Shown piece after piece: positions 24,569 through 42,946 of a DNA stretch of 42,946 bases. The notes under the pieces are model-generated. The model was not told where the DNA came from. It searched no databases and saw nothing but the letters and a program-made list of their open reading frames with translations. This stretch comes from an uncultured Myxococcales bacterium (GTDB taxonomy: Bacteria > Desulfobacterota > Binatia > UBA1149 > SPBQ01): the NCBI GenBank assembly GCA_964597375.1, contig CAZQYE010000001.1:1-42946 (forward strand), read 5' to 3'. The translations under genes were made by a program, and so were the position numbers. Positions within the stretch are counted from its first letter, which is position 1. Every line of letters starts with the position of its first letter.

Positions 24569-24636
24569 AACAGACGTGTCGGTGTCCGCCCGTTCGGGTG
24601 AATCGATCGCCCGCTCTGCGCGTCGGAACTACTGAA

Positions 24637-25569: not shown

Positions 25570-25571
25570 GA

Positions 25572-27292
<1,721 letters not shown>

Positions 27293-27293
<1 letters not shown>

Positions 27294-29067: not shown

Positions 29068-29849
29068 ATGCTGCTGCGGCGATTTCGGTGGGCGAGGTTC
29101 TGCAGTACCGCGATTGCCTGCGTATTCTGACGGCGCGTGCTCTGAAGGTACGTTACAGGCGGTCGGTGCTCGGCTTCGGCTGGAGCCTGCTGTATCCGCT
29201 GCTGTCGATGCTGATTCTGACCGCGGTGTTTGCCCGCGTCTTTCCCGCAGTCTCCTCGTATCCGGTCTACGTGATCGTCGGCGTGCTGGCGTGGGGGTTC
29301 ATCTCGCTGAGCTCCCTGCAGGCGATGGATTCGTTGATCGGGGGGGCGAACGTATTGCGCCGGGTGTACGTTCCACCCGCCGTCTTTCCTCTTTCGGTGG
29401 TCGCGGCCAACCTGGTGCACTTTCTGCTTTCGATTCTCGTTCTTCCGGTCGTGATGGCCGTCGTCGGTGCCTGGCCCGGCTGGCATCCACTGCTGCTTGG
29501 TGCCGGACTGCTCTGTCTGACGGCGTTTGCAACGGGACTGGCACTTGCGCTCGCGGCCTGCAATTTGTTCTTCAGGGACGTCCGCTACTTTTTCGAAGCG
29601 CTGCTGCTGATGTGGTTTTACGCCACGCCGATCGTGTATCCGGCCGGCGTGATTCCAGGGGACCTGCGCTTCATGTTGTGGGCCAACCCGATGCACTGGC
29701 TGCTCGCCGTCATGCGAGGCGCGCTGTACCCCGGAGCCGAGGTCCGTTTGAGCGAGCTGGCCATGGCGGTTTGTGTCGCCGTAACCTGCCTCGGGCTCGG
29801 TTGGGCCGTATTCGACCGCTGCCAGAAGCGGTTTTACTTGTATTGGTGA
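29064..29849 (+). CDS. ABC-2 type polysaccharide export permease (Wzm-like)
   Basis: Lies inside ORF 29004-29849. GTG 29064 makes a GTGA overlap. ...VLQYRDCLRILTARALKVRYRRSVLGFGWSLLYPLL is the ABC-2 N-terminal signature. About six hydrophobic spans. Confidence 0.8.
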   Translation: MNAAAAISVGEVLQYRDCLRILTARALKVRYRRSVLGFGWSLLYPLLSMLILTAVFARVFPAVSSYPVYVIVGVLAWGFISLSSLQAMDSLIGGANVLRRVYVPPAVFPLSVVAANLVHFLLSILVLPVVMAVVGAWPGWHPLLLGAGLLCLTAFATGLALALAACNLFFRDVRYFFEALLLMWFYATPIVYPAGVIPGDLRFMLWANPMHWLLAVMRGALYPGAEVRLSELAMAVCVAVTCLGLGWAVFDRCQKRFYLYW

Positions 29850-30598
29850 CGGAGCTGCGTGAACAAGTCGTCGTCGTTCGCGACCTCCACGTCCGCCTCC
29901 GGCAGGAACGCGATCGGATTCGCTCGCTGCGTGAGTACGTCGTTCGCCGGCTGCAACGCGCATTCCTCGCTGCGGACTGGATCGACGTGCTGCGAAACGT
30001 CTCCTTCTCCCTCGGGCGCGGGGAGTTGCTCGCGGTTCTCGGCCCCAACGGGGCCGGCAAGACGACGTTGCTGAGGGTGCTGGCCGGTATCATTCCGCCC
30101 GCCGGCGGCGGGGTCGAGGTGCGCGGACGCGTCGCTCCCCTGATCGATCTCGGCGCCGGATTCGATCCGGAGCTGACCGGCAACGAAAACATCGAACTCT
30201 TCGGTACGATTCTTGGGTTGTCGTTGCGTGAGGTTCGCCGCCGGGTGCCGGCGATTCGGGCGTTTGCCGATCTCGGCGACGCACTCGATTCGCCGCTGCG
30301 CAACTATTCCTCAGGCATGGTCGCGCGCCTTGGCTTTGCGGTTGCTACCGAGGCTGCGCCGGACGTACTGCTCGTCGACGAGGCGCTCGCCGTGGGGGAC
30401 GAGGAGTTTCGCGGGCGCTGCTTCGCCAGAATTGCTCAGCTTCGGGCCGGTGGAACGGCGATCGTCCTCGTGAGCCACGATTTGCCTCTGGTGCGGGAGC
30501 GGGCGGATCGTGCTCTTCTCCTGCGCGACGGCCGCCAACTGCGGATTGGAAGTGCGGCCGACGTCGTCGACGCGTACCTGCGGGAGGTGGCCTCGTGA
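29846..30598 (+). CDS. Polysaccharide/teichoic-acid-type export ABC ATPase (Wzt/TagH-like, no C-terminal carbohydrate-binding extension)
   Basis: This is the C-terminal 250 aa of ORF 28745-30598. GTG 29846 makes a GTGA overlap. Motifs: Walker A GPNGAGKTTLL, signature YSSGM, Walker B VLLVDEAL, H-loop VSHD. Confidence 0.88.
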   Translation: MTELREQVVVVRDLHVRLRQERDRIRSLREYVVRRLQRAFLAADWIDVLRNVSFSLGRGELLAVLGPNGAGKTTLLRVLAGIIPPAGGGVEVRGRVAPLIDLGAGFDPELTGNENIELFGTILGLSLREVRRRVPAIRAFADLGDALDSPLRNYSSGMVARLGFAVATEAAPDVLLVDEALAVGDEEFRGRCFARIAQLRAGGTAIVLVSHDLPLVRERADRALLLRDGRQLRIGSAADVVDAYLREVAS

Positions 30599-31515
30599 CG
30601 TGCCTGCGAGCGGCCGCCGTCATCGTGTCTTACGAGCCCGGGCCCGTGCTCGAGCGAGCGGTGCAGGCCGTGCTGGCAAGCCGGTTCCGGCCGCTCGAAG
30701 TGATCGTGGTGGACAACGGCAGCCGGGACGGGGCTGCCAGAGGTCTGGCCGATTCCTGCGACGGCCGCTTGCAGATGTTGTTTCTCGGGTCCAACCGCGG
30801 GTTTGCCGGTGCAGTCAATGCGGCGATCGACTGGCGCGAGACTCGTGTAGGAGAGCCCCCGGTCGACGTCTATGCCTTGGTCAACCCGGACTGTTTCGTC
30901 GAACCCGGCTGGCTCGGTCCTCTGGTGGCGGTGTTGACCGCTGAGCCGTCGGTCGCGGTAGTGGGCGGGTTGCTGTACGACTCGAGCGGCAGTGCGATCG
31001 AGCACGCCGGTGCCGTCGTCCGGGCGAACGGCCTCACCGAGCACCGGGGTCGTGGTTGCCGCCGTCTCGGCGAGTACGAGCGGCCGGCCGAGGTGGATTA
31101 CGTCACCGGCGCAATGTGCGCGTTTCGAGCGTCCACGTGGCACCGGCTCGGCGGTTTCGATGCCGGTTACTTTCCCGCTTACTTCGAAGAAACCGATTTC
31201 TGCCTGCGAGCGCGCTCTCTCGGTATGCGGGTGGTCTATGAGCCGGCCGCCCGGGGCATCCATCTCGAGGCCGTGAGCCTAGGCAAGAAAACGGATGCGT
31301 TTTTCCGTGTATACCACCGAAATCGAGTACGTTTTGCTGCAAGGCACCTGCTTCGGAGAGGGCGATGGCTCGCGGCGGTCTCGAGCGAGCTTGGGTGGTT
31401 GGCCGGCGGGGGCGCCCGCGGCAGCGCTCGCGCCGTTGCGGCGGCGTACGCTCGTCTTCCCATCGAACTGTGGGCAGCCAGGCGTGCCCGCTCCAGTGAA
31501 GGGGCTTGCCGGTGA
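30595..31515 (+). CDS. Glycosyltransferase family 2 (COG1216-like)
   Basis: GTG 30595 makes a GTGA overlap. Motifs: AAVIVSYEPGPVL, VVDNGSRDG, NRGFAGAVNAA, VNPDCFV, GGFDAGYFPAYFEETDFCLRA. Confidence 0.8.
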   Translation: MTCLRAAAVIVSYEPGPVLERAVQAVLASRFRPLEVIVVDNGSRDGAARGLADSCDGRLQMLFLGSNRGFAGAVNAAIDWRETRVGEPPVDVYALVNPDCFVEPGWLGPLVAVLTAEPSVAVVGGLLYDSSGSAIEHAGAVVRANGLTEHRGRGCRRLGEYERPAEVDYVTGAMCAFRASTWHRLGGFDAGYFPAYFEETDFCLRARSLGMRVVYEPAARGIHLEAVSLGKKTDAFFRVYHRNRVRFAARHLLRRGRWLAAVSSELGWLAGGGARGSARAVAAAYARLPIELWAARRARSSEGACR

Positions 31516-32909
31516 GCCGTGTCGCTCTGTTTGCGATGGGGCTGCCGCCGGCGGCGGGCGGTTGCTGCCACATGGGCCCGGGGTTGCGCTGCGGCCATTT
31601 CGCCGCTGCGTTGACGGCGGACGGGCACGAGGTGCTGATCGTCCGGTGTGACAACAGCGCTCCTGCGCGGGCACTGCGGGTTCGGGATCTGCCGGGAGTG
31701 CCCGTCGCCGGGCGCGAAGTCGGCGTAATCGAGGCATCCGAACCGGCCTTCGAGAGCGAACTACTGCGCTCTCGCATACGGGCGTTCGGCCCCGATGCCC
31801 TGGTCGGGGCCACGGTCTATGCTGCATCGCTCGCGCTGCGCCTCAGGCTCGATGTGCCGCTGTGGGCGGACGTGTTCGGCGATTTCATGGCGGAGGCACA
31901 GGCCAAAGCCGTGGTGGCGAACAACGACGCGGTAATTGCCCGCTTCTGGCAAATGTTGCTTCCGGTGCTCGAGCGCGCCGATCGGTTTTCGTGTGTCTCC
32001 GGGCGGCAGCGCTGGGCGCTTCTCGGTCAACTGGGCCTCGCCGGTCGCCTCTCATCGGCGACGGCCGGGGAGGATCTCGTTTCGGTCGTGCCGTGCGCGG
32101 CCGAGGCTCCGGTGGGGGGCGGCGAGAGTCCGCTGCGCAAGGGGGTCGAGATTCCGCGGGACGCCTTTCTGGTTGTATGGACGGGAACGTTCAACACCTG
32201 GTGCGACGTCGACGTGCTGTTTGCGGGGCTCGAGCTCGCCATGCGCCGCGAGCCGCGACTGCAGTTCGTCGCCACGGGCGGGGAGGTGCCCGGGCACGAC
32301 GAGACGACGTACGCACGGTTCGAGCGTTTGGTTGCACAAAGCGGTCTCAGCGAGCGTTTTCACTTGCTCGGCTGGATCGATCGCGGTGCGTTGTCCGGAT
32401 TGATCGCAGAAGCCGATGTGGGGATCGTCGTCGAACGCCCCTTGCCCGAACGCTACCTCGGATCGGAAAACCGGGTCGCCGAATGGGCGGCTGCCGGCCT
32501 TCCCTGCGTGACGACGGGGCTGAGCGAGTTCGGCGCCGCAATGGTCGAGCGAGGGCTCGCGTTCGGCGTGCCGCCGGGTGACCCGGAACGCTTGGCGGCC
32601 ACTCTGTGTGAGCTGATCCAAGATCCCGGGCGCCTCGAGCGCGCCGCCGGCGGCTGCGCGGCCGAGGCGGCCAGCCGGTTGTCCCCCGAGCGCACGGCTG
32701 AACCGCTCGTCGCCTGGTGCCGGAAGCCAGTGTTCGCGGGCGATCGAGGCCGCAGCCGGCCGGTGTCCGTGGGATTGTTCTCCGAGCCCTCGTCGCTGGC
32801 TCACATGCTCGAGGCCTATCTCGCCGGCCTGTCGTGGGGCCAGATCTTCTATAGATCGGCGAGGTGGTTCGGCCGCCGGCTGGTCCGGCGAGGCCGCCGA
32901 TGGGGTTGA
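31512..32909 (+). CDS. GT-B fold glycosyltransferase (group 1 / GT4-like)
   Basis: Lies inside ORF 31506-32909. GTG 31512 makes a GTGA overlap. The N-terminal half is Rossmann-like. The C-terminal half has FLVVWTGTFNTW..., LLGWIDRGAL and GSENRVAEWAAAGLPCV (an E-x7-E-like region). Confidence 0.65.
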   Translation: MSRVALFAMGLPPAAGGCCHMGPGLRCGHFAAALTADGHEVLIVRCDNSAPARALRVRDLPGVPVAGREVGVIEASEPAFESELLRSRIRAFGPDALVGATVYAASLALRLRLDVPLWADVFGDFMAEAQAKAVVANNDAVIARFWQMLLPVLERADRFSCVSGRQRWALLGQLGLAGRLSSATAGEDLVSVVPCAAEAPVGGGESPLRKGVEIPRDAFLVVWTGTFNTWCDVDVLFAGLELAMRREPRLQFVATGGEVPGHDETTYARFERLVAQSGLSERFHLLGWIDRGALSGLIAEADVGIVVERPLPERYLGSENRVAEWAAAGLPCVTTGLSEFGAAMVERGLAFGVPPGDPERLAATLCELIQDPGRLERAAGGCAAEAASRLSPERTAEPLVAWCRKPVFAGDRGRSRPVSVGLFSEPSSLAHMLEAYLAGLSWGQIFYRSARWFGRRLVRRGRRWG

Positions 32910-32985
32910 GACCTCAGAGACCGGCGCATACCATCGGGCGTCTTGTGCCGCGCGTAGCCGCCGGTCATCGTGCCGGGGGCTGCGC

Positions 32986-34677
32986 GTGCGGGTGGCACGG
33001 ATAGCAATGAACGAGTGTCATCGCGTACTGATTGTCGGACTCGACGGCGTTCCTTTCTCGCTCATCGCCGAATGGGCCAAGGCCGGCTACCTGCCGACCT
33101 TCGCCCGGCTCATGTCCGAAGGGGTCGCGGGGGATCTGGGCTCGACCATGCCGCCGACGTCGGGCCCGTCCTGGACCTCGCTGTCGACTGGAAAGAATCC
33201 GGGCAAGACGGGAATCTACGACTTTCTCTACCGGCGGCCGGGCACGTACGTGTTTCCGCCCGTCAACACCAGCGTACGTAGCGGCAAGTCCCTGTGGCGT
33301 CTGCTCAGCGAGAGCGGCAAGCGGGTGGTGGTCGTCAACCTCCCGATTTCGTACCCCGTCGAGCCGGTGAACGGCGTCTTGATCAGCGGCTGGATGACTC
33401 CGTACTTCGCCACCGACTACACCTGGCCGCCCGAGCTCGGTGATGAAATCCGGCGTGAGATCGGCGATTACCGGATCTACCCGGCCGAGACGTTCAGTGA
33501 ACGCGGTAAGAAGCGATTCTTCGAGGCTTGCGACGAGCTGCTCGACCTGCTGACGCGGACCAACCTGTACCTAATGAACAAGCAGCCTTGGGACTTGTTC
33601 ATGACCGTGTACTTCGACACGGACCGGATTCTGCACCAGCTGTGGCACTATCTCGATCCGGAGCACCCCTGGCGGCGCCACATCAAAGAGGACCTGTCGC
33701 AGCCGGTGATTCGATACTTCCAGCGCCTAGACGCCGATCTCGCTCGCCTGATCGACGCCGCGGGGGAGGATTGCCGGGTGATCGTGATGTCCGATCACGG
33801 AATGGGACGGGCCTCGCGTTTCATCGTCCTGAACAATCTGTTGCTCGAGACTGGATTCATGTCGCTGGCACGCGACGGCTGGACGCGGCTCAAGACGGCC
33901 GCTTTTCGCAGCGGCATCACCCTGCGCAACGTGCACCGGGCCGTCGACCGGCTGGGTCTGGCCAAACACGCCGAGTACAAGAACGTCTACTCGTTCGATT
34001 CGATCTTGAAGAAGCTGTTTCTCTCCTTCGACAACGTCGATTGGAGCCGAACCCGCGCCTATTCGTTCGGCCGTCATTACGGTTCGGTGTTTTTGAACGT
34101 TCGCGGGCGCGAGCCTCTGGGGATCGTCGAGCCGGGGACCGAGTACGAACGGATTCGCGACGAGCTCGCCGATGCCATGCTCGGCTACGTCGACCCCAAG
34201 CTCGGCCGGCCGATCGTCGGCCGCTGCATCAAGCGCGAGGAAGTGTACCACGGGGAGCGTTTCGAAGAGGCCCCCGACCTGATTCTGCTTCCCGAGGACC
34301 CGAGCGATATTTTCTACGGCCTTTCCGATTTCGGCTCGAACCGTGTGTGGGACGATACCTACCGTTATTCCGGCATGCACCGGGACGCCGGGCTGATCAT
34401 TGCCTGCGGACCGGGAGTGCGCCGCGGAGAGGCGTTCTCGGGCGGGAGTGTCGTGGACATCGCGCCGACGGCCCTGCACTGGCTCGGCGAGCCGATTCCT
34501 CCGGACATGGACGGACGCTCGCTGGTGTCGCTGCTTGCCGAGGACGCCCTGGCGGCTTCCCCCCCGCGGCTCGGGACTCAATCGAGCGCCGGCGAGGCGC
34601 GGCGCGACCGCGACTACACCGAAGACGAGGAGCGCGAGATCATGGAACGGCTACGCGATCTCGGCTACCTCAGCTGA
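32986..34677 (+). CDS. Alkaline-phosphatase-superfamily enzyme (type I phosphodiesterase / nucleotide pyrophosphatase family, COG3379-like), predicted cytoplasmic
   Basis: RVLIVGLDGVPFSL and STMPPTSGPSWTSLSTGKNPGKTGI (metal/nucleophile region analogous to the NPP motif ...T-x-P-x-x-x-S-x-x-TG), then VIVMSDHGM. No signal peptide or TM helix. GTG 32986 or ATG 33007 may be the start. Confidence 0.75.
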   Translation: MRVARIAMNECHRVLIVGLDGVPFSLIAEWAKAGYLPTFARLMSEGVAGDLGSTMPPTSGPSWTSLSTGKNPGKTGIYDFLYRRPGTYVFPPVNTSVRSGKSLWRLLSESGKRVVVVNLPISYPVEPVNGVLISGWMTPYFATDYTWPPELGDEIRREIGDYRIYPAETFSERGKKRFFEACDELLDLLTRTNLYLMNKQPWDLFMTVYFDTDRILHQLWHYLDPEHPWRRHIKEDLSQPVIRYFQRLDADLARLIDAAGEDCRVIVMSDHGMGRASRFIVLNNLLLETGFMSLARDGWTRLKTAAFRSGITLRNVHRAVDRLGLAKHAEYKNVYSFDSILKKLFLSFDNVDWSRTRAYSFGRHYGSVFLNVRGREPLGIVEPGTEYERIRDELADAMLGYVDPKLGRPIVGRCIKREEVYHGERFEEAPDLILLPEDPSDIFYGLSDFGSNRVWDDTYRYSGMHRDAGLIIACGPGVRRGEAFSGGSVVDIAPTALHWLGEPIPPDMDGRSLVSLLAEDALAASPPRLGTQSSAGEARRDRDYTEDEEREIMERLRDLGYLS

Positions 34678-34681
34678 AGTC

Positions 34682-37600
34682 GTGCGACGAGTGCAGTTGC
34701 CGGCTTGGGCCCTGCTTGGTTTCGCCGGCGCCGGTCTGGCGGGCGGTTGGTCGCTGCTGCCCCCGGCGTTGTTTTACCTTACGATCGTCTTACTGCCCGG
34801 ACACGTCGTGTTGTCTGCGGCGGGCCTCGACGACGAACCGCTCGCCGCCGGCCCGCCACGCTTGGTCCTCGATCTGTGCGCTTCCCTGGTGGCGCTGGTG
34901 CCGCCGGTTCTCGTGTTGCTGCCAGCCGGCCGACCGCTGTCGTCGGCATGGGTCACGCTCGGATCGTGGACTGCCGCGCTGGCCCTTGCGGCGTTGTGGC
35001 GCAGGCGACGCCCGTCCCCGGTAAACGCGGCGGGGTGGGGGGACTGGAAGAAGTGGGCGTGCTTCGGCCTGGCGCTGGCCGTGTTGTTGCCCGCCGTGTG
35101 GACGTACGCCGGTGGAACGGTCGACGATTGGTGGGATCTCGCGTTCGTGCGTTCCTATGCCGAGCGAGATTCGTTCTCGCTGAACGAACCGGTGCTCGCC
35201 AGCGGCGCAGGCCATCCGCGTTTCGCTTGGAATTCCTGGCTCGTCGCCCAGGCTCTCGCGCTGGCCCTGTGTGGAGGCGATCCTGCGGCGCTTCAGTCGC
35301 GCGTGGTGGCGCCGCTCGTCTGCGTCTTGGTGGTTGCTGCATTTGCTCTGCTGGCTCGGGTTTTCCTCGCCGAGCGGGGTCGCCTGACGGAGTGTGTGGC
35401 GCTGGCAATGGTTCCGGTGTGGCTTTACGGAACCGAAGCCTTGCCTTTCTTTACGCGGCTTCACCAAGACAAGTTCGTCGCCGGTTTGGTGCTCGTCCCG
35501 GCGATGCTCGCCTGGGCGGCGGCTGCGGCGACGGACGAAGACGAGACGCTGCGTCCACTCGTTGCCTTGGCGCTTGCGGCGCTGGCGTGTGCGGTGGTTC
35601 ATGGCCTGATGCTCGCCGTCGGCCTGATCGGTGTGGGCACGGTCGTCTCCGCTGCGCTCGCAGGCGCTTCTGCCGGCGGCCGGCGCCGGCTCGCGGCGGT
35701 CGTGTCGGTCGGTGCAATTGCGGCCCTGTACCCGGCGTGGCAGGCGTTCGAGGTCGGACGCTGGTTTGCGGCCGAGGGAATCTCCATGGCGGCTACGGAC
35801 AATCCCGTCGTGCGGGCGCACCTCGCCCTGGGCCGCTTGTGGGCACCGCAATCGGCGGCGTATGTGGTGCGTCCTTCAGCGGTCTTCGGCCCGGTCGCGG
35901 TACTCGCGGTGCCGGCCCTGTGGGGACTGTGGCGCAGGCGCGCGCAGCGACGTGAGCGCATGCTCCTGTTGCTGGCCGTGGTTCCTTGCCTCCTCGTCTT
36001 CGTTCCGGGCCTGGCCGCCGCGGTCGGGCGGCTGCTGGTCCCGTGGATGCTGTACCGTGTCGCGTGGCTGGTGCCCGTGCCACTGCTGCTCGCCGTAAGC
36101 GTCGATACGCTCTGGGGGCGTCGTGCTTACGGGCCGGGCGTCCTCGCTGCCTTGCTCGCGCTGGCGACCGCCGCGGCATCGGCGCAGACGGGCATTGCTC
36201 GCTGGCGCCGAAACATGCAGCCGCATCCGGTCGAGCGCGAGCGGGCGCCTTCGGGATCGACTCTCAGGTTGTACGAGGCGTTGCGGCAGCGTCGTGAGCC
36301 CGGTCCCGTGCTGGCGCCCCCGGGCGTGGCACACTTGTTGCCCGCGCTCGGAGCACATTCGGTCGTGGCATCGACCGAGCGGGCCACTCTCGTGTTTTCG
36401 GGCGACGAGGCTGAGGCCTACCGGAGGCTCGCCGACCGCGCGCGCTTTTATTCCCCGAGGTCCTCTGCCGCCGAGCGCGAGGCGATCGCCCGCCGTTACG
36501 GGGTCCGGCTCGTCGTCTTCGAGCGCCGGCTGATTCCCGAGGGGGGCGAGAGGGCGTGGCTGGCGACGGCGAGTCCCGAAGCGTTCGTCCGCTGGGTCGA
36601 AGGGGGAGGCCTGGCGACACCGTTTGCCACGCGCGAAGCCTTGCTCGCGGCGATTCCACCGGGCTGGTCGGTGGTGTGGGAAAGTCCGGACTATTTTCTA
36701 GTGGCCACCGGTGTGGCCTCGGCCGCGTCGCAGCCACGCCAGAACGCCGGGGGATGGACCGCCGCGTTTTCGCTCACCGGCTTCGACCCGCCTCCCGAGG
36801 GCGAAGTGCTGGCAAGCGCATCGGCCTACCCGGGAGCCGTCTACCGGTTCGAGCCGGTGCCGGCGACGCTTGCCACCCCACACGGTATTGCATGGACCTC
36901 TGGCGGGCGCCTGTGGTACGACGGGCCGCAGGCGGTGACCATCGACGTCGACCTCGAACGGGCATGTCGGGTGACGGGCGTCGAACTCGTTCCGTCGATC
37001 CGAACCGGCCGTCGTGAAGTGCTGGCCGTTACCGTTCGGGGACGCCGCCGCAGCGGCATCGTCCGTGACCGCGAGCCGGTGTTCGTGCGGCTCGACGGCT
37101 CCATGGTGGAGCGAGTGTCGCTCGACGTCGAATCGCTCATGGGTGTCGCGTTCGCCCTCGAGGACGTCCGCGTGTGGGGGGATCGTGCGGCGTGTCGGGG
37201 CAGCTGGTCTCCGCGTGTGAAGCCACTGTGGCCGCAAGGCGAGCTGGGTGTTGCGCGTCTGATCGATCTCGTTCGAAGCTACCCTCGCCAGGCAAAAGCG
37301 TCGGTTGCCTTGGCGCGCGTGCTCGAACGTTTCGACCGGAGGGACGACGCCCGCGAAGTATTGCGTCTCGCCCTGGCCCGGCAGGACGACCGGCCGGTTC
37401 CATGGATCGAAGCCGGCCTGCTCGACGACGCCGAAGGGCGCTCGGACGAAGCGCTGTCGGCGTACCGGCGTGCGTTGTCCGCGGACTCGAACAACATATG
37501 GGCGAGAGGGTGTCTCGCCTGGGCCCTGGTGCGGCGCGGTCACGTGCTCGGTGGACTGTGGTACGCGTGGCGGGCGCGCGCGGCGGAGCCGCGCTATGCC

Positions 37601-37858
37601 GATGCCTACACGATCGAAGCGCTGGCGGTCGAACGTTTGGGCCTCGTGCGCATGGCCGAGCGCCGCTTGCGCCGCGCCGTCGAACTCGATCCGAAGCGCG
37701 GGTGGGGAGTCATGGAGCTGGCCAAGCTGCTCGCGCGCAACGGGCGCCGCGGCGAGGCGCTGCGCCTGATCGCCGAGTATCTCGAGCACGTGCCGGACGA
37801 TGCATCGGCGCACAAACTCGCCCGGCGACTCGGCGGCGAGACGGGAGACTCGTCGTGA
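34682..37858 (+). CDS. 1058-aa polytopic membrane protein with periplasmic-type beta-sandwich region and C-terminal TPR repeats (candidate GT-C glycosyltransferase or O-antigen-ligase-like enzyme; function unproven)
   Basis: Lies inside ORF 34400-37858. GTG 34682 is 4 nt after the upstream stop; GTG 34691 is an alternative. The first ~590 aa carry many hydrophobic helices, with DDWWD at 35123-35137 in an early loop. Around 36876-37185 the pattern ...AVTIDVDLERACRVTGVELVP...VAFALEDVRVWG resembles a discoidin (F5/8 type C) fold. The last 206 aa (37238-37855) are TPR-like: ...EALSAYRRALSADSNN..., ...RLRRAVELDPKRGWG.... Confidence 0.7.
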   Translation: MRRVQLPAWALLGFAGAGLAGGWSLLPPALFYLTIVLLPGHVVLSAAGLDDEPLAAGPPRLVLDLCASLVALVPPVLVLLPAGRPLSSAWVTLGSWTAALALAALWRRRRPSPVNAAGWGDWKKWACFGLALAVLLPAVWTYAGGTVDDWWDLAFVRSYAERDSFSLNEPVLASGAGHPRFAWNSWLVAQALALALCGGDPAALQSRVVAPLVCVLVVAAFALLARVFLAERGRLTECVALAMVPVWLYGTEALPFFTRLHQDKFVAGLVLVPAMLAWAAAAATDEDETLRPLVALALAALACAVVHGLMLAVGLIGVGTVVSAALAGASAGGRRRLAAVVSVGAIAALYPAWQAFEVGRWFAAEGISMAATDNPVVRAHLALGRLWAPQSAAYVVRPSAVFGPVAVLAVPALWGLWRRRAQRRERMLLLLAVVPCLLVFVPGLAAAVGRLLVPWMLYRVAWLVPVPLLLAVSVDTLWGRRAYGPGVLAALLALATAAASAQTGIARWRRNMQPHPVERERAPSGSTLRLYEALRQRREPGPVLAPPGVAHLLPALGAHSVVASTERATLVFSGDEAEAYRRLADRARFYSPRSSAAEREAIARRYGVRLVVFERRLIPEGGERAWLATASPEAFVRWVEGGGLATPFATREALLAAIPPGWSVVWESPDYFLVATGVASAASQPRQNAGGWTAAFSLTGFDPPPEGEVLASASAYPGAVYRFEPVPATLATPHGIAWTSGGRLWYDGPQAVTIDVDLERACRVTGVELVPSIRTGRREVLAVTVRGRRRSGIVRDREPVFVRLDGSMVERVSLDVESLMGVAFALEDVRVWGDRAACRGSWSPRVKPLWPQGELGVARLIDLVRSYPRQAKASVALARVLERFDRRDDAREVLRLALARQDDRPVPWIEAGLLDDAEGRSDEALSAYRRALSADSNNIWARGCLAWALVRRGHVLGGLWYAWRARAAEPRYADAYTIEALAVERLGLVRMAERRLRRAVELDPKRGWGVMELAKLLARNGRRGEALRLIAEYLEHVPDDASAHKLARRLGGETGDSS

Positions 37859-39042
37859 ACATCGGATTGATCGGTCCTGCACCTCCTCTGCGCGGTGGGA
37901 TCGCTGCGCACACGGCGGGACTCGAGCGTGCTCTGGTTGGGCTCGGCCACCGGGTTGCGGTGCTTTCGTACGCGCGCGTGTATCCGCGGCTGCTCTACCC
38001 CGGTGCCCGCGTGCGCGAGCCGGGTCTCCTCGCGGCGACGGAGTTGATCGACTCGCTCGATCCGGCGAGCTGGACGCGCATGCGGCGGTGGCTCGAGGCC
38101 GGCGGCTTCGACCGCGTGGTCGTCGAGTGGTGGCATCCCATCGTCGCTCCCGCGTTGCTTGCGGGCCTGCCGGCTGCTTCGAGTGTCTGCGTCGTCGTGC
38201 ACAATGTCGTTCCGCACGAGTGGTTTCCAGGTTCGAGAGCGCTATTGAGGGCGGTTCTCGCGCGCGCTCAGGCGGTCGTGTGCCACTCCGAGCACGTGGC
38301 GGGGGAGTTGGCGGCCATCAGGCCGCGGGTGCCCGCGCGTGTCGTTCCGATGCCCCCCCTTCTCGATGTGGCGCTGGTGCTGTCGCGTGATCGAGGCGCG
38401 GCACGCGAACGGCTCGGGTTGCCCGCTGGTGCTCGAGTCGTGGCGTTTGCAGGGCACGTCCGGCGATACAAAGGTGTCGATGTGCTCCTGGAGGCATGGC
38501 GCCGCGTGCGCGAGAAGCGCCGCGATGTGCACTTAGTCGTGGCAGGCGAGGACTATCGTCCCGGCAGTCTGCGCCGCCGGGCCGCCGGACAGTGCGACGC
38601 GCTCCATGTGGTCCCGCGATACCTGAGCGACGACGAGCTGGCCGACGTGGTCGCGTGTGCCGACTGCATGGTGTTTCCCTACTTGCGCGCCTCGCAGAGC
38701 GGCCTTTTGCCGGTCGCCCGGGAATCGGGGACACGGGTGGTCGTGAGCGACGTCGGGGGCATCGGCGAGCAGGTTCGAGGTTACCCGCGCGCTGCGGTCG
38801 TTCGGGCCGGTGATGCGAGGGGGCTCGCCGATGCGATTATCAGGACTCTCGCCTCGGCGGAAGAGGACCGCAGTGTCGCAACGCGTCGCGCGCCCCAGCG
38901 ACAGCACGCCGACTGGAATCGACTGGCTCGGATTTGCGCCGGTGGTGAAGGAGTGGAGAGCCCAGACGTCGAACAGTTCATGGGGCGCAAAACGACGCCG
39001 GAACACGGCCTTACGCCGACAACTTCATGCGTGGTAGAATGA
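37855..39042 (+). CDS. Glycosyltransferase group 1 (GT4)
   Basis: Lies inside ORF 37174-39042. GTG 37855 makes a GTGA overlap. It reads VNIGLIGPAPPLRGGIAAHTAGL..., then VVAFAGHVRRYKGVDVLLEAW and FPYLRASQSGLLPVARESGTRVVVSDVGG (E-x7-E-type region). Confidence 0.8.
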   Translation: MNIGLIGPAPPLRGGIAAHTAGLERALVGLGHRVAVLSYARVYPRLLYPGARVREPGLLAATELIDSLDPASWTRMRRWLEAGGFDRVVVEWWHPIVAPALLAGLPAASSVCVVVHNVVPHEWFPGSRALLRAVLARAQAVVCHSEHVAGELAAIRPRVPARVVPMPPLLDVALVLSRDRGAARERLGLPAGARVVAFAGHVRRYKGVDVLLEAWRRVREKRRDVHLVVAGEDYRPGSLRRRAAGQCDALHVVPRYLSDDELADVVACADCMVFPYLRASQSGLLPVARESGTRVVVSDVGGIGEQVRGYPRAAVVRAGDARGLADAIIRTLASAEEDRSVATRRAPQRQHADWNRLARICAGGEGVESPDVEQFMGRKTTPEHGLTPTTSCVVE

Positions 39043-39082
39043 TGTTGCGGTTGCTGCGGCGAAAACCGTCAGTAGGCAAAGC

Positions 39083-40315
39083 ATGGTAACGTTTTCTTAC
39101 CGGGCAGCGACGGCCGAGGGCCGTGTCGTCGAGGGAGTGCTCGAGGCGGAAGCCGAGTCCGCCGTCGTCGCGAACCTGCGCCAGCAAGGCTACATTCCGC
39201 TCGAGGTCGTCGCCGGACGCGGGGCGGCTCGCACGAGTAGGCGGTTTTCCTTCACGCTCCCGCGGTTGTCATGGAGGGACCGGGTCCGCGGCCGCGATTT
39301 GATGCTCTTCACGCGGGAGCTTGCGACGCTGCTGCACGCTGGCATGCCGCTCGACCGCAGTCTCCAGAGCCTCGCTGCGCTCGGCGAGAACGAGCGGCTT
39401 CGGGCGGTCGTAAGCGACGTTCTCGCCCGCGTGCAAGAGGGCAAGTCCCTGTCGGATGCCCTCGCCGATCACAGTGAGGTGTTCCCTCCGCTGTACGTGA
39501 ACATGGTGCGGGCCGGCGAGGCCGGGGGCGTGGTCGAGTCGGTTCTCGAGCGGCTGGCCGAATACCTCGAGGCGAGCGAAAAGGCACGGGACGAGATTCG
39601 CTCGGCGATGACGTATCCGCTGATCCTTGCGCTCGTCGGTGGGGTGTCGATCGTCGTCCTGCTGACCTACGTGCTGCCGAAATTCACCGTCGTTTTCGCC
39701 GACTTGGGAGCAGCGATGCCGGCTTCGACGAGGCTCGTCATGGCCGCCAGCGACGCGCTTCAGAAGTACTGGTGGATCGCCGCCGTGGTGATCGCCGCCG
39801 CGGTTTTTGCCTTTCGCCGCTATGCAGCTACTGCGGAGGGGCGAATGCGGGTCGATCGCTGGAAGCTGTCGGCCCCGCTCATCGGCGATCTAGTGCGGAA
39901 GGTTCAGGTTTCGAGGTTTGCGCGCACGCTTGGGACCATGCTCAAGAGTGGAGTGCCGCTCATTCGTTCGCTCGAAATCGTTCGTGCGATCGTGGGCAAC
40001 GTCATCATTTCGTCGGCGCTCGAGGTCGTGCAAAAAGAAGTCAGTGAGGGAAAAGGGCTGGCGCAGCCGCTCGAGCGGACGGGGGTGTTCCCGGCGCTGT
40101 CCCTCCAGATGGTTGCCGTCGGAGAAGAGACCGGGCGCCTCGACGACATGTTGCTCGTGGTGGCCGGCCACTATGATCGCGAGGTCGGCAATGCGGTTGC
40201 CAGGCTGATGAGCATGATCGAGCCGGCGATGCTCCTGATCATGGGGTTGGTCACGGGGTTTATCGTCATTGCGATGCTGTCGGCGGTCTTCAGCGTGAAT
40301 CAGATGTCGTTTTGA
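39083..40315 (+). CDS. gspF: Type II secretion system inner-membrane platform protein GspF
   Basis: 410 aa. MVTFSYRAATAEGRVVEGVLEAEAESAVVANLRQQGYIPLEV, followed by two T2SSF repeats (...FTRELATLLHAGMPLDRSL... and ...FARTLGTMLKSGVPLIRSL...) and three TM segments. Confidence 0.92.
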   Translation: MVTFSYRAATAEGRVVEGVLEAEAESAVVANLRQQGYIPLEVVAGRGAARTSRRFSFTLPRLSWRDRVRGRDLMLFTRELATLLHAGMPLDRSLQSLAALGENERLRAVVSDVLARVQEGKSLSDALADHSEVFPPLYVNMVRAGEAGGVVESVLERLAEYLEASEKARDEIRSAMTYPLILALVGGVSIVVLLTYVLPKFTVVFADLGAAMPASTRLVMAASDALQKYWWIAAVVIAAAVFAFRRYAATAEGRMRVDRWKLSAPLIGDLVRKVQVSRFARTLGTMLKSGVPLIRSLEIVRAIVGNVIISSALEVVQKEVSEGKGLAQPLERTGVFPALSLQMVAVGEETGRLDDMLLVVAGHYDREVGNAVARLMSMIEPAMLLIMGLVTGFIVIAMLSAVFSVNQMSF

Positions 40316-40341
40316 CGGCGGGCAGGAGGTCGAAATTGGCG

Positions 40342-40770
40342 ATGCAAAACAGGCATTCGAGAAACCGGCGTGCGGGCTTCACCCTGGTGGAGCTGCTGGT
40401 GGTCATGGTCATCCTTGGACTGCTGGCCTCGATCGTGTTGCCGAACTTCTTCGGACAGGCGCGTAAGGCCCGGGTCAAGACCGCGCGCGTTCAGATTTCG
40501 ACGCTCGAAACGGCGCTCGATGCCTTCGCGCTCGATACCGGTCGCTATCCGACGACGGAGGAAGGCCTGCAAGCGCTCGTCGAGCGCCCTCCGAACGCCA
40601 AGAGCTGGGATGGGCCGTATCTGAAGAAGAGCGTGCCTCTCGATCCCTGGGGGAACCCGTACCACTATGAAGGGCCGACCGAAGGCTCCAGCTACGTGCT
40701 CAAGTCCTATGGAGCCGACGGTGCTCCCGGAGGCACCGACGATGCTGCCGACATTCCGGAGGACCGATAG
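40342..40770 (+). CDS. gspG: Type II secretion major pseudopilin GspG
   Basis: Lies inside ORF 40312-40770. ATG 40342 has AGGAGG upstream. Prepilin leader MQNRHSRNRRAG|FTLVELLVV with Glu+5. T2SSG core: YPTTEEGLQALVERPP...WDGPYLKK..PLDPWGNPYHYEGP...YVLKSYGADG. Confidence 0.93.
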   Translation: MQNRHSRNRRAGFTLVELLVVMVILGLLASIVLPNFFGQARKARVKTARVQISTLETALDAFALDTGRYPTTEEGLQALVERPPNAKSWDGPYLKKSVPLDPWGNPYHYEGPTEGSSYVLKSYGADGAPGGTDDAADIPEDR

Positions 40771-41332
40771 TCCTCGAGCGCGCTCGTGCCTTCGGCGCTC
40801 GAGCGGCTTCACGCTGCTCGAGCTGATCGTCGTGATGTTGATCATTGCCGTCAGCGCGGCGCTCGTCGCGCCGTCGGTGACTTCGGGGCGCAGGCAGCGG
40901 GAGGTTCGGCACACGCTGCAGGCGGTTCAGGCGCTAGTGCGTCGCGGTGCAGCGACCGCCGTGTTCCGCCGCAAGCGCGTGGAGCTGCGCGTCGATCCCG
41001 ATCGGGGAGCACTCGCTTTAGCGGCTCCGGCGCCTGCCGGCGGCGATGCCTCGGGCGAGAGTCCGCCGGCGGAGGCCGCCGACGGCGAGGAGGCGGACGG
41101 GTTCGAAATCGTTCGGGAGTTGGTCCTTCCACCGGCGGCATCGGTCGATGACCTGCACGGCGGGCGTCTCGAAAACGATACGCTGGTGCTCGAGTTCTTC
41201 CCCACTGGGGGATCGAGCGGTGGAGGGTTCGAGCTGCGTTTCGCCGACGGTCCGGGCGGGCGCGTGCGACAGAGGTTTGCAGTGGCGATCGATCCGCTGA
41301 CGAGCGAGTTCGCTCTCGAGGAGGGTAAGTGA
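40742..41332 (+). CDS. gspH: Type II secretion minor pseudopilin GspH
   Basis: Lies inside ORF 40667-41332. There is no in-frame start after the gspG stop, so ATG 40742 is used (29-nt overlap with gspG). Leader ...RRSSG|FTLLELIVVMLIIAV with Glu+5. Size and position fit GspH. Confidence 0.7.
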   Translation: MLPTFRRTDSPRARSCLRRSSGFTLLELIVVMLIIAVSAALVAPSVTSGRRQREVRHTLQAVQALVRRGAATAVFRRKRVELRVDPDRGALALAAPAPAGGDASGESPPAEAADGEEADGFEIVRELVLPPAASVDDLHGGRLENDTLVLEFFPTGGSSGGGFELRFADGPGGRVRQRFAVAIDPLTSEFALEEGK

Positions 41333-41736
41333 GAAAGAGCGCCGGCTTCACCTTGCTCGAGGTGTTGATCGCGGTTTCGGTTGCTGCGATCGGAATCGTC
41401 GGCGTACTCGAACTGTTCTCGGGTAGCTCGCATTTGGCCCGTGCATCCGTGCGCCAAACCGACGCACTGGTATTGGCTCGGGCGGTGATGGACGAGACCC
41501 TCTGGCGTTCGGATCTCGAGGACGGCGCGGAGAGCGGAAGCGAAGGGCCGTTTCGCTGGCATGTCGAGGTCGAGCCGTACGAACCGCGGCTCGGAGCTCC
41601 CGAAGGCGAGGAAACCCGGGAAAACGTCTCGAACGACTACGAACTCAAGCGCGTGCGGGTGCGGGTCGAGTGGGGACCGCCGAGCTCCCCGCAATCGGTC
41701 GAGCTTGCGTCGCTGCGCGTGATGGAGCTGTTCTGA
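41329..41736 (+). CDS. gspI: Type II secretion minor pseudopilin GspI
   Basis: GTG 41329 makes a GTGA overlap. MRKSAG|FTLLEVLIAVSVAAIG with Glu+5. At 135 aa, with the C-terminal pattern ...LKRVRVRVEW....VELASLRV, it is typical of GspI. Confidence 0.8.
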   Translation: MRKSAGFTLLEVLIAVSVAAIGIVGVLELFSGSSHLARASVRQTDALVLARAVMDETLWRSDLEDGAESGSEGPFRWHVEVEPYEPRLGAPEGEETRENVSNDYELKRVRVRVEWGPPSSPQSVELASLRVMELF

Positions 41737-41738
41737 CG

Positions 41739-42401
41739 ATGAGCGGTCGGCAACGCGGATTTACCATGGTCGAGCTGGTGATTGCGATCACGCTGCTGTC
41801 GATGCTCACGCTGGCACTGTACGGGGTCGTGTCGATCGGTGCACGCGCGGCGTCGGCCGCCGAACGCCGTACCGAACAGGCCCGGCGCTTGCGGATCGCG
41901 ACCGGCATCATCGTCAGGCAGCTGCACGCCGCGGCGCCCCTCAAGGTGCCCGATGAAGACGGCGTGCTCGAGCCGTTCTTCGAAGGGGAACCGCATCGGC
42001 TGGCTTTCGTCACGGCCCAGCCACAGGCGCCGGACGCTAGTGGGCTGGCGATCGTCGAGTACCGCTTTGAAGACGAACGCCTGATCATGTCCGAGCGCCC
42101 GTTCTACCTGGCCCTGACGGAGGACTTCGACCTCGAGGATCGCGACGCGCCCGGGGTGGTCGAAACGACCCTGCTGTTCGACGTTGGAGATGCGACGTTC
42201 GCCTACCGGCGATCGGACTTCGACGACGAAGAGTGGCAGCGGACCTGGAGTGCCTCGGACGACGAGTCCTTGCCCGCCGTCGTGTCGATCACGGTAGAGC
42301 CGGCCGTCGAGGGTGGGCCGGCTTGGGACCAGCGAATTCCGTTGTTCGTCGGTGTGTACAACGAAGTGACCGGAGGCGAGGACTTCCGGAGGTTCGGCTG
42401 A
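41739..42401 (+). CDS. gspJ: Type II secretion minor pseudopilin GspJ
   Basis: Lies inside ORF 41670-42401. ATG 41739 is 2 nt after the gspI stop. MSGRQRG|FTMVELVIAITLL with Glu+5. At 220 aa, with C-terminal ...W...W......LPAVVSITVE, it is GspJ-like. Confidence 0.8.
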   Translation: MSGRQRGFTMVELVIAITLLSMLTLALYGVVSIGARAASAAERRTEQARRLRIATGIIVRQLHAAAPLKVPDEDGVLEPFFEGEPHRLAFVTAQPQAPDASGLAIVEYRFEDERLIMSERPFYLALTEDFDLEDRDAPGVVETTLLFDVGDATFAYRRSDFDDEEWQRTWSASDDESLPAVVSITVEPAVEGGPAWDQRIPLFVGVYNEVTGGEDFRRFG

Positions 42402-42405
42402 CGTC

Positions 42406-42946
42406 GTGCGAAGCGTTTCTCATCTGCGCCGGAACGGCGAGTCTGGTGTCGCCCTCGTGCTCGTTCTGTGGACGTTCGCCGTGTTGACCGTGCTTGCGGG
42501 GGAGTTCGCCCGCGCCATGCGGCTCGACGCGGAGGCGACGCGCACGTTCAAGCAGTCGACGATTGCTCAGTACGCGGCGATGGGGGCGCTGAACGAAGCG
42601 CTCTTGGCGATCAGCTCGTACAACGGTGAGCTTGACGAAGACCTCGGTGCGGAGGACGAGGAGGACGCTGAGGCGAGCGAGGCGACTGGCGAAGAGGAAG
42701 AAGGCCTCGAGCCAGTGCTGACGCTGCTCGAGGGGCGCGGGGATCCCGTTACGGTTCCGGTGGTTCCGGCCGAAGGAGAGCCCCCCATCGAGGTCGAAGT
42801 GCGCGCGTTTTCCGAGGACGGTAAGGTGCCACTCAACGCGCTGCGTGTCGACGAGGCGGTGTTGCGGCTGATCCTGACGAATCTCGGATATGATGACGAG
42901 ACGGCGGCGACGGTTTCCGATTCGATCCTCGACTGGCGCGACGAAG
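42406..42946 (+). CDS. gspK: Type II secretion minor pseudopilin GspK, N-terminal part (runs off window)
   Basis: Absent from the ORF track because there is no stop within the window. GTG 42406 has GGAGG 13 nt upstream, and the frame stays open to 42946. The hydrophobic N-terminus GVALVLVLWTFAVLTVLAG lacks Glu+5. Later motifs are ...DGKVPLNAL... and ...SDSILDWRDE, which are GspK-type. Follows gspJ. Confidence 0.75.
   Translation, partial: MRSVSHLRRNGESGVALVLVLWTFAVLTVLAGEFARAMRLDAEATRTFKQSTIAQYAAMGALNEALLAISSYNGELDEDLGAEDEEDAEASEATGEEEEGLEPVLTLLEGRGDPVTVPVVPAEGEPPIEVEVRAFSEDGKVPLNALRVDEAVLRLILTNLGYDDETAATVSDSILDWRDE

Follow-up and report, generated by a model that had tools for sequence, protein, structure and literature searches.

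A probable GT-C-fold glycosyltransferase with a predicted periplasmic CBM32-like and TPR head, encoded in a glycan cassette between gspE and gspF

Type II secretion system (T2SS) operons are normally contiguous runs of gsp genes. In the stretch of DNA analysed here (the window, 42,946 nucleotides (nt) of contig CAZQYE010000001.1, from an uncultured bacterium labelled Myxococcales and placed by GTDB in the Binatia), gspE and gspF are separated by a cassette of glycan genes, within which a coding sequence at 34682-37858 on the + strand specifies a large polytopic membrane protein ending in tetratricopeptide repeats (TPRs), referred to here as the target. What does this protein do, and why is it encoded there? 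The evidence set out below makes it probable that the target is an inner-membrane glycosyltransferase of GT-C fold, carrying out the periplasmic step of the glycoconjugate pathway encoded by the cassette, a reading that is based on a structural model, conserved residues and gene context. New, as far as databases and literature show, are the family, its GT-C/alpha-beta/CBM32-like/TPR architecture and the fixed position of the cassette between gspE and gspF; the fold and the general chemistry of the target are already known. A literature search found no publication describing a glycan cassette between gspE and gspF or a DUF6077-type GT-C/TPR arrangement, and none on the DUF6077 family, introduced below, or its function.

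The reading frame of the target is open from 34682 to 37858 and comprises 1058 codons and a stop, in agreement with the 1058 amino acids (aa) given in a preliminary description made from the DNA letters. It starts with a GTG at 34682, 4 nt past the TGA of the upstream gene, and the resulting N-terminus aligns with the N-termini of full-length homologues. At the other end, the TGA stop overlaps the GTG start of a family 4 glycosyltransferase (GT4) gene, GT4b, in the tetranucleotide GTGA. The predicted protein has four parts:

34682-37858, + strand: whole coding sequence; GT-C membrane domain, periplasmic alpha/beta domain, CBM32-like beta-sandwich and six TPRs, as assigned from the open reading frame (ORF), 38 homologues and an AlphaFold2 (AF2) model.
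34682-36208, + strand: membrane domain, residues 1-509, with about 15 transmembrane (TM) helices (DSSP assignment of the model, Foldseek, DUF6077 match, hhalign).
36239-36781, + strand: alpha/beta domain, residues ~520-700, predicted periplasmic (whole-protein and middle-domain models; AftD Foldseek alignments; invariant E566, R567, Y580 and R582).
36794-37195, + strand: beta-sandwich, residues ~705-838, resembling galactose-binding domains (F5/8 type C, CBM32/CBM47; Foldseek, invariant C762 and C838).
37250-37828, + strand: TPR domain, residues 857-1049, 12 helices in about six repeats (Pfam, DSSP, Foldseek).

The C-terminal repeats, suspected earlier to be TPR-like, belong to this class by their 34-residue helix pairs, by hidden Markov models and by structure: within residues 867-1057 the Pfam models TPR_19 (E=2.4e-15), TPR_2 and TPR_14 all score above cutoff, the whole-protein model has 12 helices at 857-1049, and the best Foldseek matches of that model are CTPR, OGT and the APC/C TPRs. 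In front of the repeats is the sandwich, with strands at residues 751-834. When residues 511-858 were modelled separately (pLDDT 86), Foldseek returned beta-sandwich modules of several classes (E 9e-5 to 2e-3; TMt 0.37-0.50 for CBM32-5/-6, lectinolysin, SpX and factor VIII C2), including the C-terminal modules of GH29 fucosidases, Clostridium CBM32 domains (CBM32-5/-6 and the CpGH89 CBM32), the lectin domain of lectinolysin, SpX fucose-binding modules, the C2 domains of factor VIII and lactadherin, and the soluble part of AftD. The alignments with AftD, at 450-454 columns, extend beyond the sandwich. The discoidin or galactose-binding type of sandwich read from the sequence is thereby matched at the level of fold only, the target having no Pfam F5_F8_type_C match. 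The hydrophobic array, described earlier as about 590 aa long, is indeed polytopic, but the membrane part stops at about residue 509 and gives way to the soluble alpha/beta domain (510-700).

A search of ~5.8 billion proteins retrieved 38 full-length homologues of the target (962-1194 aa, 35-67% identity), all of them metagenomic. Their labels read hypothetical protein, TPR protein, 'Tfp pilus assembly protein PilF' or 'TadD'; in the few cases where an organism is named, it is Candidatus Binatia or Dadabacteria. In the family alignment of 39 sequences (the target and these homologues), mean identity to the target is similar along the chain, at 43% in the TM domain, 41% in the alpha/beta domain, 39% in the sandwich and 41% in the TPRs. 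Conservation of all four domains at about 40% in 38 full-length homologues is far more than chance would give. The TM domain contains about 50 invariant residues. Those in the membrane part include D148, D149, W150, W151, D152, H178, P179, R180, W183, W186, Q190, R259, Q262, D263, K264 and H307; also invariant in the alignment are P375, V376, A379, H380, L383, R385, P454, W455, M456, Y458, R459, W462, R507, R510, C762 and C838, among others.

The AF2 model built from this alignment has a pLDDT of 92.0 and a pTM of 0.92. Compared with the PDB by Foldseek, the whole-protein model gave 50 listed matches, headed by TPR proteins. Every non-TPR match among these 50 is a GT-C_A enzyme (Stt3, AglB, AftD or AftA; E 1e-6 to 2e-5, probability score 1.00), and no ligase, polymerase, flippase or transporter is found among them:

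Yeast Stt3: 7oci_F, E=1.2e-6, TMt 0.50.
Yeast Stt3: 6ezn_F, E=1.2e-5, TMt 0.49.
AftD: 6wby, 6wbx and 6w98, E 2.5e-6 (6wby) to 8e-6, TMt 0.24-0.27.
AglB: 3wak (3.2e-6), 7e9s, 5gmy and 3waj, E 3e-6 to 2e-5, TMt 0.35-0.37.
AftA: 8if8 (8if8_B), E=1e-5, TMt 0.54-0.55.

The membrane part of the model begins with four extra N-terminal helices, followed by the predicted GT-C core from TM5 (residues 115-142). Within this core, DSSP assigns a TM helix at 115-142, a loop at 143-200 containing helices 149-161 and 185-197, and a TM helix at 201-228, which we take to be the TM1/EL1/TM2 layout (EL1, external loop 1) typical of GT-C_A enzymes. As in those enzymes, a core TM helix is directly followed by a long loop, predicted to be extracytoplasmic, that contains two juxtamembrane helices and opens with a conserved acid, D148. 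The preliminary description had named the GT-C fold as a candidate, and the model supports that assignment. It had also located the motif DDWWD at 35123-35137, which corresponds to residues 148-152 exactly; the motif does follow early helices as stated, with the correction that it comes after the fifth helix and not in the first loop of the protein.

Among known GT-C enzymes, the mycobacterial arabinosyltransferases AftA and AftD (and EmbA/B/C) share the GT-C_A fold with the target (Foldseek E 2.5e-6 to 1e-5). They also have a large periplasmic part with carbohydrate-binding beta-sandwich modules, as the target is predicted to have, and the soluble part of AftD matches the middle-domain model. 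Emb proteins have extra TM helices before the catalytic loop, and the Aft and Emb enzymes act downstream of a lipid-linked glycan exported by Wzm/Wzt. The target differs from AftA and AftD in its TPR domain, which they lack, in showing no sequence similarity to them in phmmer or profile searches of the PDB, and in its setting: a Gram-negative T2SS operon in which no donor pathway of the decaprenylphosphoryl arabinose (DPA) type was found in the cassette and Wzm/Wzt are absent from 7 of 16 related loci. Also similar in layout are STT3, AglB and PglB (GT66): the first external loop of their core contains an acidic residue, and their C-terminal domain is periplasmic or luminal. In oligosaccharyltransferases (OSTs) the WWD signature belongs to the soluble domain, whereas the WWD of the target's DDWWD is in a loop of the membrane domain, and the soluble part of the target is CBM32-like and TPR.

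Three other enzyme classes were considered for the target and are not supported. As an OST it would be expected to carry WWD[YWFN]G, which occurs in 0 of 39 homologues, and there is no STT3 Pfam match at E<=1; the similarity is structural only. Assignment to the O-antigen ligases, PglL, PilO or Wzy_C proteins, which had been offered earlier as an alternative, finds no support in a Wzy_C match (PF04932) at E<=1 or in a WaaL, PglL or Wzy structure among the 50 Foldseek matches listed. Nor does the target belong by sequence to the PMT, PMT_2, ArnT and TMTC enzymes (GT39, GT83, GT105), with no PMT, PMT_2 or DUF1736 match at E<=1 and none of their structures among those 50. TMTC1-4 and bacterial PMT_2+TPR proteins do have a polytopic GT-C domain followed by non-cytoplasmic TPRs, as does the target, with only the order of domains in common, and between these two parts the target has an additional alpha/beta and CBM32-like module.

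On which side of the membrane would the conserved residues lie? With the helices of the model taken as TM segments and loop charges averaged over the 39 homologues (positive-inside rule), 15 TM helices are predicted, with the N-terminus inside, the C-terminus outside and the C-terminal ~550 residues in the periplasm. The seven predicted cytoplasmic loops all carry a net positive charge (+0.7 to +2.3) and, together with the N-terminus, contain 18.6 lysines plus arginines per 98 residues; the short periplasmic loops contain 8.9 per 97, and the net charge of the DDWWD loop is -2.8. In this predicted topology DDWWD, all superfamily-invariant polar residues, the sandwich and the TPRs are on the periplasmic side, contrary to the cytoplasmic DDWWD loop that the preliminary description had named as a refutation. 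The conserved residues D148, R180, W186, R259, D263, K264, H307, R385, W455, R459 and W462 may form a single cluster on the periplasmic loops. Consistent with such a location of the soluble part, the sandwich cysteines C762 and C838 are present in 39 of 39 homologues, a pair that fits an oxidizing compartment, the periplasm; the disulfide itself is deduced and not taken from coordinates. The invariant residues of the membrane domain fall into five motifs, of which the first contains D148, a candidate catalytic or metal-binding acid:

35123-35137, + strand: DDWWD, D148-D152, at the periplasmic end of TM5, where the first juxtamembrane helix starts; identical in all 39 sequences.
35213-35251, + strand: HPRFxWxxWxxxQ, residues 178-190, in the same predicted periplasmic loop as DDWWD; H178, P179, R180, W183, W186 and Q190 family-invariant, R180 and W186 superfamily-wide.
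35432-35476, + strand: TEALPFFTRLHQDKF, residues 251-265, second predicted periplasmic loop and start of TM8; R259, Q262, D263 and K264 family-invariant, with R259, D263 and K264 in all superfamily tiers.
35798-35836, + strand: DNPVVRAHLxLxR, residues 373-385, in the long predicted periplasmic loop 348-403; P375, V376, A379, H380, L383 and R385 family-invariant, R385 superfamily-wide.
36041-36067, + strand: PWMLYRVAW, residues 454-462, in the predicted periplasmic loop 441-465; family-invariant, with P454, W455, R459 and W462 superfamily-wide.

Besides the TPRs, the only Pfam family found in the target is DUF6077 (PF19554; residues 84-325, E=1.1e-6), with a score of 28.1 bits that passes the gathering cutoff of 27 marginally. 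Comparison of the family profile with a secure DUF6077 member (57 bits to Pfam) by hhalign gave a probability of 99.1% over 438 columns. Because the marginal Pfam pass is joined by this strong profile match, the target is, on sequence grounds, counted in the DUF6077 superfamily as a divergent member. When 1.84 billion cluster representatives were searched with a TM-domain profile, 598 proteins were retrieved at E<=1e-3, which fall into three tiers: the clade of the target (~1050-1140 aa, >380 bits), proteins of ~800 aa without Pfam matches (130-250 bits), and many DUF6077+TPR proteins of up to ~3170 aa. Across 143 aligned domains from the three tiers, D148, W150, R180, W186, R259, D263, K264, P273, H307, R385, P398, P442, P454, W455, R459 and W462 are kept; unlike D148 and W150, the remaining residues of DDWWD (D149, W151 and D152) are kept only in the clade of the target. 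Shared between the target and DUF6077 proteins at large are thus invariant D, R, W, R-x-x-x-D-K, H, R and PW-x-x-R-x-x-W positions. The Binatota clade is distinct and tight (>380 bits, against <250 bits for all others), its own features being DDWWD, HPRF, DNPVVRAHL, R507/R510, the CBM-like domain and the T2SS context.

Cluster names across the superfamily are limited to 'hypothetical', 'TPR repeat protein' and 'DUF6077 domain-containing protein', and the earlier suggestion that the target may represent an uncharacterized family fits both the DUF6077 score of 28.1 bits against a cutoff of 27 and the fact that no member has a functional name. Many distant DUF6077 relatives have the GT-C+TPR layout of the target, some with very long TPR arrays. 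Giant relatives of the membrane domain include P0132 (3165 aa), P0168 (3173 aa), P0170 (2876 aa), P0150 (2278 aa) and P0136 (1780 aa), the last of which combines a membrane domain of DUF6077 type with very long arrays of TPRs behind it. One distant DUF6077+TPR relative is encoded in a glycan cluster, beside a Wzt with a Wzt_C domain, GT4s, sulfotransferases and WecG. In two loci of the second tier, L007 (9913-14702) and L037 (8001-12987), a gene for an ~800-aa protein without TPR matches lies directly upstream of a second family member; both loci have enoyl-CoA hydratase, luciferase-like and acyl-CoA synthetase genes upstream in common, with no T2SS or glycosyltransferase genes nearby, and these tier-2 genes may be paralogues with a different role.

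The conservation of the membrane domain bears on whether the target is an enzyme at all. It could instead be a non-catalytic TPR scaffold, an assembly factor like PilF, PilW or TadD whose polytopic part is only an anchor; several homologues carry the JGI labels 'Tfp pilus assembly protein PilF' or 'TadD', and there is an NCBIfam match to PilW at 37 bits against a cutoff of 154. These labels and the PilW match arise from the TPR region alone, the match far below its cutoff, and an anchor would not be expected to keep about 50 invariant TM-domain residues, the polar signature of ~600 distant relatives or the GT-C fold. We regard this explanation as very improbable. The NCBIfam matches of the target are all sub-threshold and TPR-driven (PilW, PrsT and BcsC), and the PilF/PilW/TadD labels of the homologues reflect their TPRs only. 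Membership of the PilF/PilW/TadD lipoproteins themselves was rejected on the same PilW score (TIGR02521), the target being a 1058-aa polytopic protein and not a lipoprotein.

From gspE through gspF to the pseudopilin genes that follow, the genes around the target are:

25410-27293, + strand: GspE-type T2SS ATPase with an MshEN domain (cyclic-di-GMP-binding type), the upstream boundary of the cassette (T2SSE E=9.6e-149; position conserved in 16/16 loci).
27269-28186 (start approximate), + strand: GT2x, a family 2 glycosyltransferase (GT2) with one hydrophobic C-terminal segment, core gene (Glycos_transf_2 E=3.4e-10; 16/16).
28201-29067 (start approximate), + strand: GT2a, a second GT2, variable gene (Glycos_transf_2 E=2.6e-23; 7/16).
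29004-29849, + strand: Wzm permease, variable gene (ABC2_membrane E=1.1e-17; 9/16).
~29846-30598, + strand: Wzt ATPase, variable gene (ABC_tran match; 9/16).
30595-31515, + strand: GT2b, a third GT2 (Pfam; 15/16).
31506-32909, + strand: GT4a (Glyco_trans_1_4; 16/16).
32986-34677, + strand: alkaline-phosphatase (AP)-superfamily enzyme (Phosphodiest), 563 aa (Pfam E=1.4e-40; 16/16).
37855-39042, + strand: GT4b (Pfam; GTG overlapping the TGA of the target; 16/16).
39083-40315, + strand: GspF (T2SSF).
40312-40770, + strand: GspG (N_methyl; GFTLxE prepilin motif).
within 40667-41332, + strand: GspH, pseudopilin with prepilin motif.
41329-41736, + strand: GspI, pseudopilin with prepilin motif.
41670-42401, + strand: GspJ (T2SSJ).

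The flanking genes named in the preliminary description are confirmed at Wzm 29004-29849, Wzt ~29846-30598, GspF 39083-40315 and the pseudopilins from 40312. Neighbouring genes of the cassette either overlap or lie no more than 76 nt apart, with 4 nt before the target and 40 nt before gspF. A promoter and terminator scan of positions 23000-42900 found no terminator-like site between genes and promoter-like sites at chance level, one of them in the 76-nt gap before the AP-superfamily gene. The best NCBIfam matches of Wzm/Wzt are galactan and teichoic-acid exporters (mycobacterial galactan-export models), below cutoff. The GT2 and GT4 proteins gave only generic or sub-threshold matches (MftF-like, EpsD, HpsN/P, MshA), and PDB sequence searches with GT2x and GT2b were uninformative. 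At wzm/wzt the ORF listing gives a single 617-aa ORF, the Wzt frame staying open upstream across wzm, and the real Wzm is in another frame. The AP-superfamily enzyme has no TM helix, hydrophobic segment or signal peptide and is predicted to be cytoplasmic; it gave no NCBIfam match and no informative PDB sequence match. Always directly before the target, it is the best conserved cassette gene, at 64-80% identity and on a par with GspE and GspF. In one locus (L006) the preceding GT4 gene, too, has Sulfatase/Phosphodiest domains fused to it.

By analogy with characterized enzymes, the target would take a sugar or short glycan from a polyprenyl phosphate or diphosphate carrier at the outer leaflet of the inner membrane; a donor of this polyprenyl-linked kind is, to our knowledge, used by all characterized GT-C enzymes. 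D148 may activate the acceptor as a base or hold a metal, and a ring of arginine, lysine and histidine residues on periplasmic loops (R180, R259, K264, H307, R385 and R459) may hold the lipid phosphate, the sugar then being passed to a periplasmic acceptor. Atop the membrane domain, the predicted head of alpha/beta domain, CBM32-like sandwich and six TPRs would form a rigid superstructure. The gene context suggests that the cytoplasmic steps, synthesis of donor or acceptor, are carried out by the neighbouring two or three GT2s, the two GT4s and the AP-superfamily enzyme, that the target provides the only periplasmic step, and that the pathway is co-transcribed with the T2SS genes. As to the acceptor, our tentative best guess is a glycan or glycolipid that the cassette makes and that the CBM-like domain would bind, as in AftA, AftD and Emb. 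A protein, part or cargo of the T2SS, comes close behind in probability given the TPRs and the position of the gene, as in TMTC or TfpW; the remaining weight is on something else. The TPRs may, as a guess, attach the target to some protein of the envelope or the secretion machinery.

The position of the cassette was followed in the contigs of four homologues and in 27 loci obtained by scanning GTDB species representatives. The records of these 27 carry the labels Binatia, Binatota, UBP10, 'Deltaproteobacteria' or 'Myxococcales', apart from one Nitrosopumilus and two distant Caldilinea matches; the counts given here refer to the 16 loci that span gspE to gspF (tblastn matrix). GT2x, GT4a, the AP-superfamily enzyme, the target and GT4b are present in all 16, always in the same order between gspE and gspF. 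Less constant are GT2b (15), Wzm/Wzt (9) and GT2a (7). Orthologues that never co-occur with glycan or T2SS genes would have refuted the earlier interpretation, but 16 of 16 loci contain both; dependence of the target on a Wzm/Wzt-exported glycan, as suggested earlier, is not general, the transporter being missing from 7 of the 16 complete loci. Downstream, the T2SS operon continues in related loci with GspK, L, M, one further gene and the secretin GspD. The target has diverged to 35% identity while staying in the operon.

Directly upstream of gspE, and overlapping its predicted start, is a gene for a CobW/ZigA-type metallochaperone GTPase (24175-25569), and this adjacency is conserved in 15 of 16 loci. 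An LptD gene and a gene for a sugar epimerase or cupin stand just before CobW; besides the window, at least two related loci have LptD upstream of CobW-GspE. The presence or absence of Wzm/Wzt (9/16) and of the second GT2 (7/16) in otherwise identical cassettes defines two cassette variants. A full gspE-cassette-gspF arrangement (L013, contig CAXQPB010000033.1) also occurs in a metagenome-assembled genome labelled Nitrosopumilus sp., an archaeon, a label that is most likely due to a binning contaminant, and several loci are labelled Myxococcales or Deltaproteobacteria though the locus is of Binatota type.

Several observations weigh against a periplasmic GT-C glycosyltransferase serving the cassette. 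The structural similarity is moderate (TMt ~0.5, with large root mean square deviations over long alignments) and comes from a predicted model. Because residues 1-852 and the TM-domain profile found no match at E<=10 among all PDB chains, the fold assignment rests on predicted structure; apart from DUF6077, no Pfam GT-C family matched at E<=1 either. GT-C families commonly lack mutual sequence similarity, so a missing sequence match does not exclude the fold. The spatial clustering of the invariant residues, like the disulfide, is deduced from topology and not from coordinates, and the annotations seen in the superfamily read only hypothetical, TPR protein or DUF6077. In the cassette, Pfam and NCBIfam recognized no priming phosphoglycosyl transferase, flippase or polyprenyl-phosphate sugar synthase, that is, no protein of the GtrB/DPM1/ArnC, WbaP/WecA or Wzx type. 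Finally, a single lineage is the apparent source of the synteny, and since the unrelated pair CobW-GspE has stayed adjacent there as well, in 15 of 16 loci, the gene order may in part reflect inheritance, not function.

The last point would suit a pathway for an envelope glycolipid or lipopolysaccharide (LPS) that lies in the T2SS operon by inherited order, the target decorating LPS core, O-antigen or a glycolipid in the manner of ArnT or of PimE, Mpt and Aft. The wider neighbourhood is indeed conserved too (LptD upstream of CobW-GspE, CobW before GspE in 15/16), family members are seemingly of one lineage, Wzm/Wzt are best matched, below cutoff, by models of galactan exporters from mycobacteria, the structural neighbours include AftA and AftD, and the two GT4s weakly resemble the lipid- or inositol-directed MshA and GlcN-PG synthase (below cutoff). 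Inherited order alone sits poorly with the tight coupling of the genes (the GTGA overlap, the 4-nt and 40-nt gaps and the lack of terminator-like sites between genes), with a core that stayed put, without dispersal, amid internal gene turnover (Wzm/Wzt 9/16, GT2a 7/16), and with a target that diverged to 35% identity yet is still in the operon. We consider this explanation rather unlikely. Shared descent probably lies behind part of the synteny; gain and loss of internal genes with a fixed core, and the signals of tight coupling, speak against pure inertia. Should the link to the T2SS be only inherited gene order, the target would still represent a new GT-C subfamily with an unusual CBM-plus-TPR periplasmic head.

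The retention of the cassette between gspE and gspF despite divergence to 35% suggests glycosylation of something that the T2SS builds or exports, or a machine used with a glycan. In the first case the target could be a protein glycosyltransferase for the secretion system, placing the cassette glycan, en bloc or sugar by sugar, on pseudopilins, T2SS parts or cargo selected by its TPRs. Precedents exist for both elements: TfpW, a GT-C enzyme encoded next to pilA, arabinosylates pilin, and the TPRs of the TMTC O-mannosyltransferases, the model for this explanation, act as selectors of protein acceptors. TfpW (GT-C) and TfpO, PilO and PglL (Wzy_C) are polytopic enzymes of glycosyl transfer encoded beside type-IV-pilin-like genes, a description that would fit the target. 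Unlike TfpW and TfpO, the target is encoded inside a six- to nine-gene cassette between gspE and gspF and not directly after a major pilin gene. Its TPR domain is conserved like the catalytic domain (41% versus 43%), the protein-glycosylating Stt3 and AglB are among its best non-TPR structural neighbours listed, and all 16 loci have its gene in a fixed place between gspE and gspF, with gspG-J a few genes away. On the other hand, none of the 39 homologues has the OST motif WWDYG, Pfam gave no match to PMT, PMT_2 or Wzy_C, the only Ala/Pro/Ser-rich stretch seen in a pseudopilin, that of GspH, is missing from many loci, and the CBM-like domain points to a carbohydrate ligand, though this might be the donor glycan. 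Taken together, a role in protein glycosylation is possible, if doubtful.

No conserved acceptor-like feature was found in the pseudopilins, the GspH insert having been compared across related loci. This insert is acidic and rich in Ala, Pro, Gly and Ser (…APAPAGGDASGESPPAEAADGEEADG…); it is present in some related loci and absent from many, and was rejected as a conserved glycan-acceptor feature on that account.

Whether secretin-based machines handle polysaccharide is a wider question on which the locus bears. The T2SS-like machine could secrete an exopolysaccharide or slime through GspD, with the target as periplasmic polymerase or modifier and TPR scaffold, comparable to the TPR regions of BcsC, PgaA, AlgK and PelB. 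The cyanobacterial hps locus, which contains five glycosyltransferases and four pseudopilins, is a precedent for such mixing of genes, and depletion of GspD lowered the secretion of slime by M. xanthus (bioRxiv 10.1101/2022.03.08.483542). As here, the hps locus combines glycosyltransferase and pseudopilin genes in one conserved locus with a proposed link between glycan and secretin machine (bioRxiv 10.1101/2022.03.08.483542); here, in contrast, there are only generic sub-threshold HpsN/HpsP matches, and the cassette lies within a T2SS that is complete and canonical (E, F, G-M, D). The weak NCBIfam matches of GT2b and GT4b to HpsN and HpsP, far below cutoff, the weak TPR similarity to the BcsC and PilW models, and the complex glycan implied by four to five glycosyltransferases would all fit a polysaccharide-secreting machine. 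Against it, the cassette has no gene for a processive membrane synthase, Wzy, a polysaccharide co-polymerase (PCP) or an outer-membrane polysaccharide exporter (OPX), the Hps, BcsC and PilW matches are generic and fall short of the curated cutoffs, the set of T2SS genes is otherwise canonical and fits ordinary protein secretion, and the model of the precedent preprint is itself a proposal (bioRxiv 10.1101/2022.03.08.483542). This explanation appears improbable.

Returning to the target as a GT-C glycosyltransferase of the cassette, a further step would be a T2SS with a built-in glycosylation module in Binatota, in which the lipid-linked glycan of the cassette is attached to the pseudopilus, the secretin or the cargo, or is fed into the secretin as an exported polymer. 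We put this forward as a speculative proposal that may well not hold. If true, secretion and glycosylation would be mechanistically coupled in one operon, apparently the first such T2SS, and a first function would be found in the DUF6077 superfamily. None of the ~600 superfamily representatives, many of them giant TPR fusions, has an assigned function, and the predicted fold and topology, together with the candidate catalytic residues D148, R180, R259, D263, K264, H307, R385 and R459, make the family testable by mutagenesis.

The minus-strand ORFs at 7994-11116 (1040 aa) and 3915-5861 (648 aa) are antisense, have no Pfam matches and are artefacts of high GC content. Upstream of the cassette, the window contains a ribosomal-protein/SecY/Adk/Map/RpoA cluster, ArgS, a trp operon (trpE to trpA), FolC, LptD, the epimerase and CobW. 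The window is core chromosome; its recognized genes all lie on the + strand, and its GC skew is positive over the whole length.

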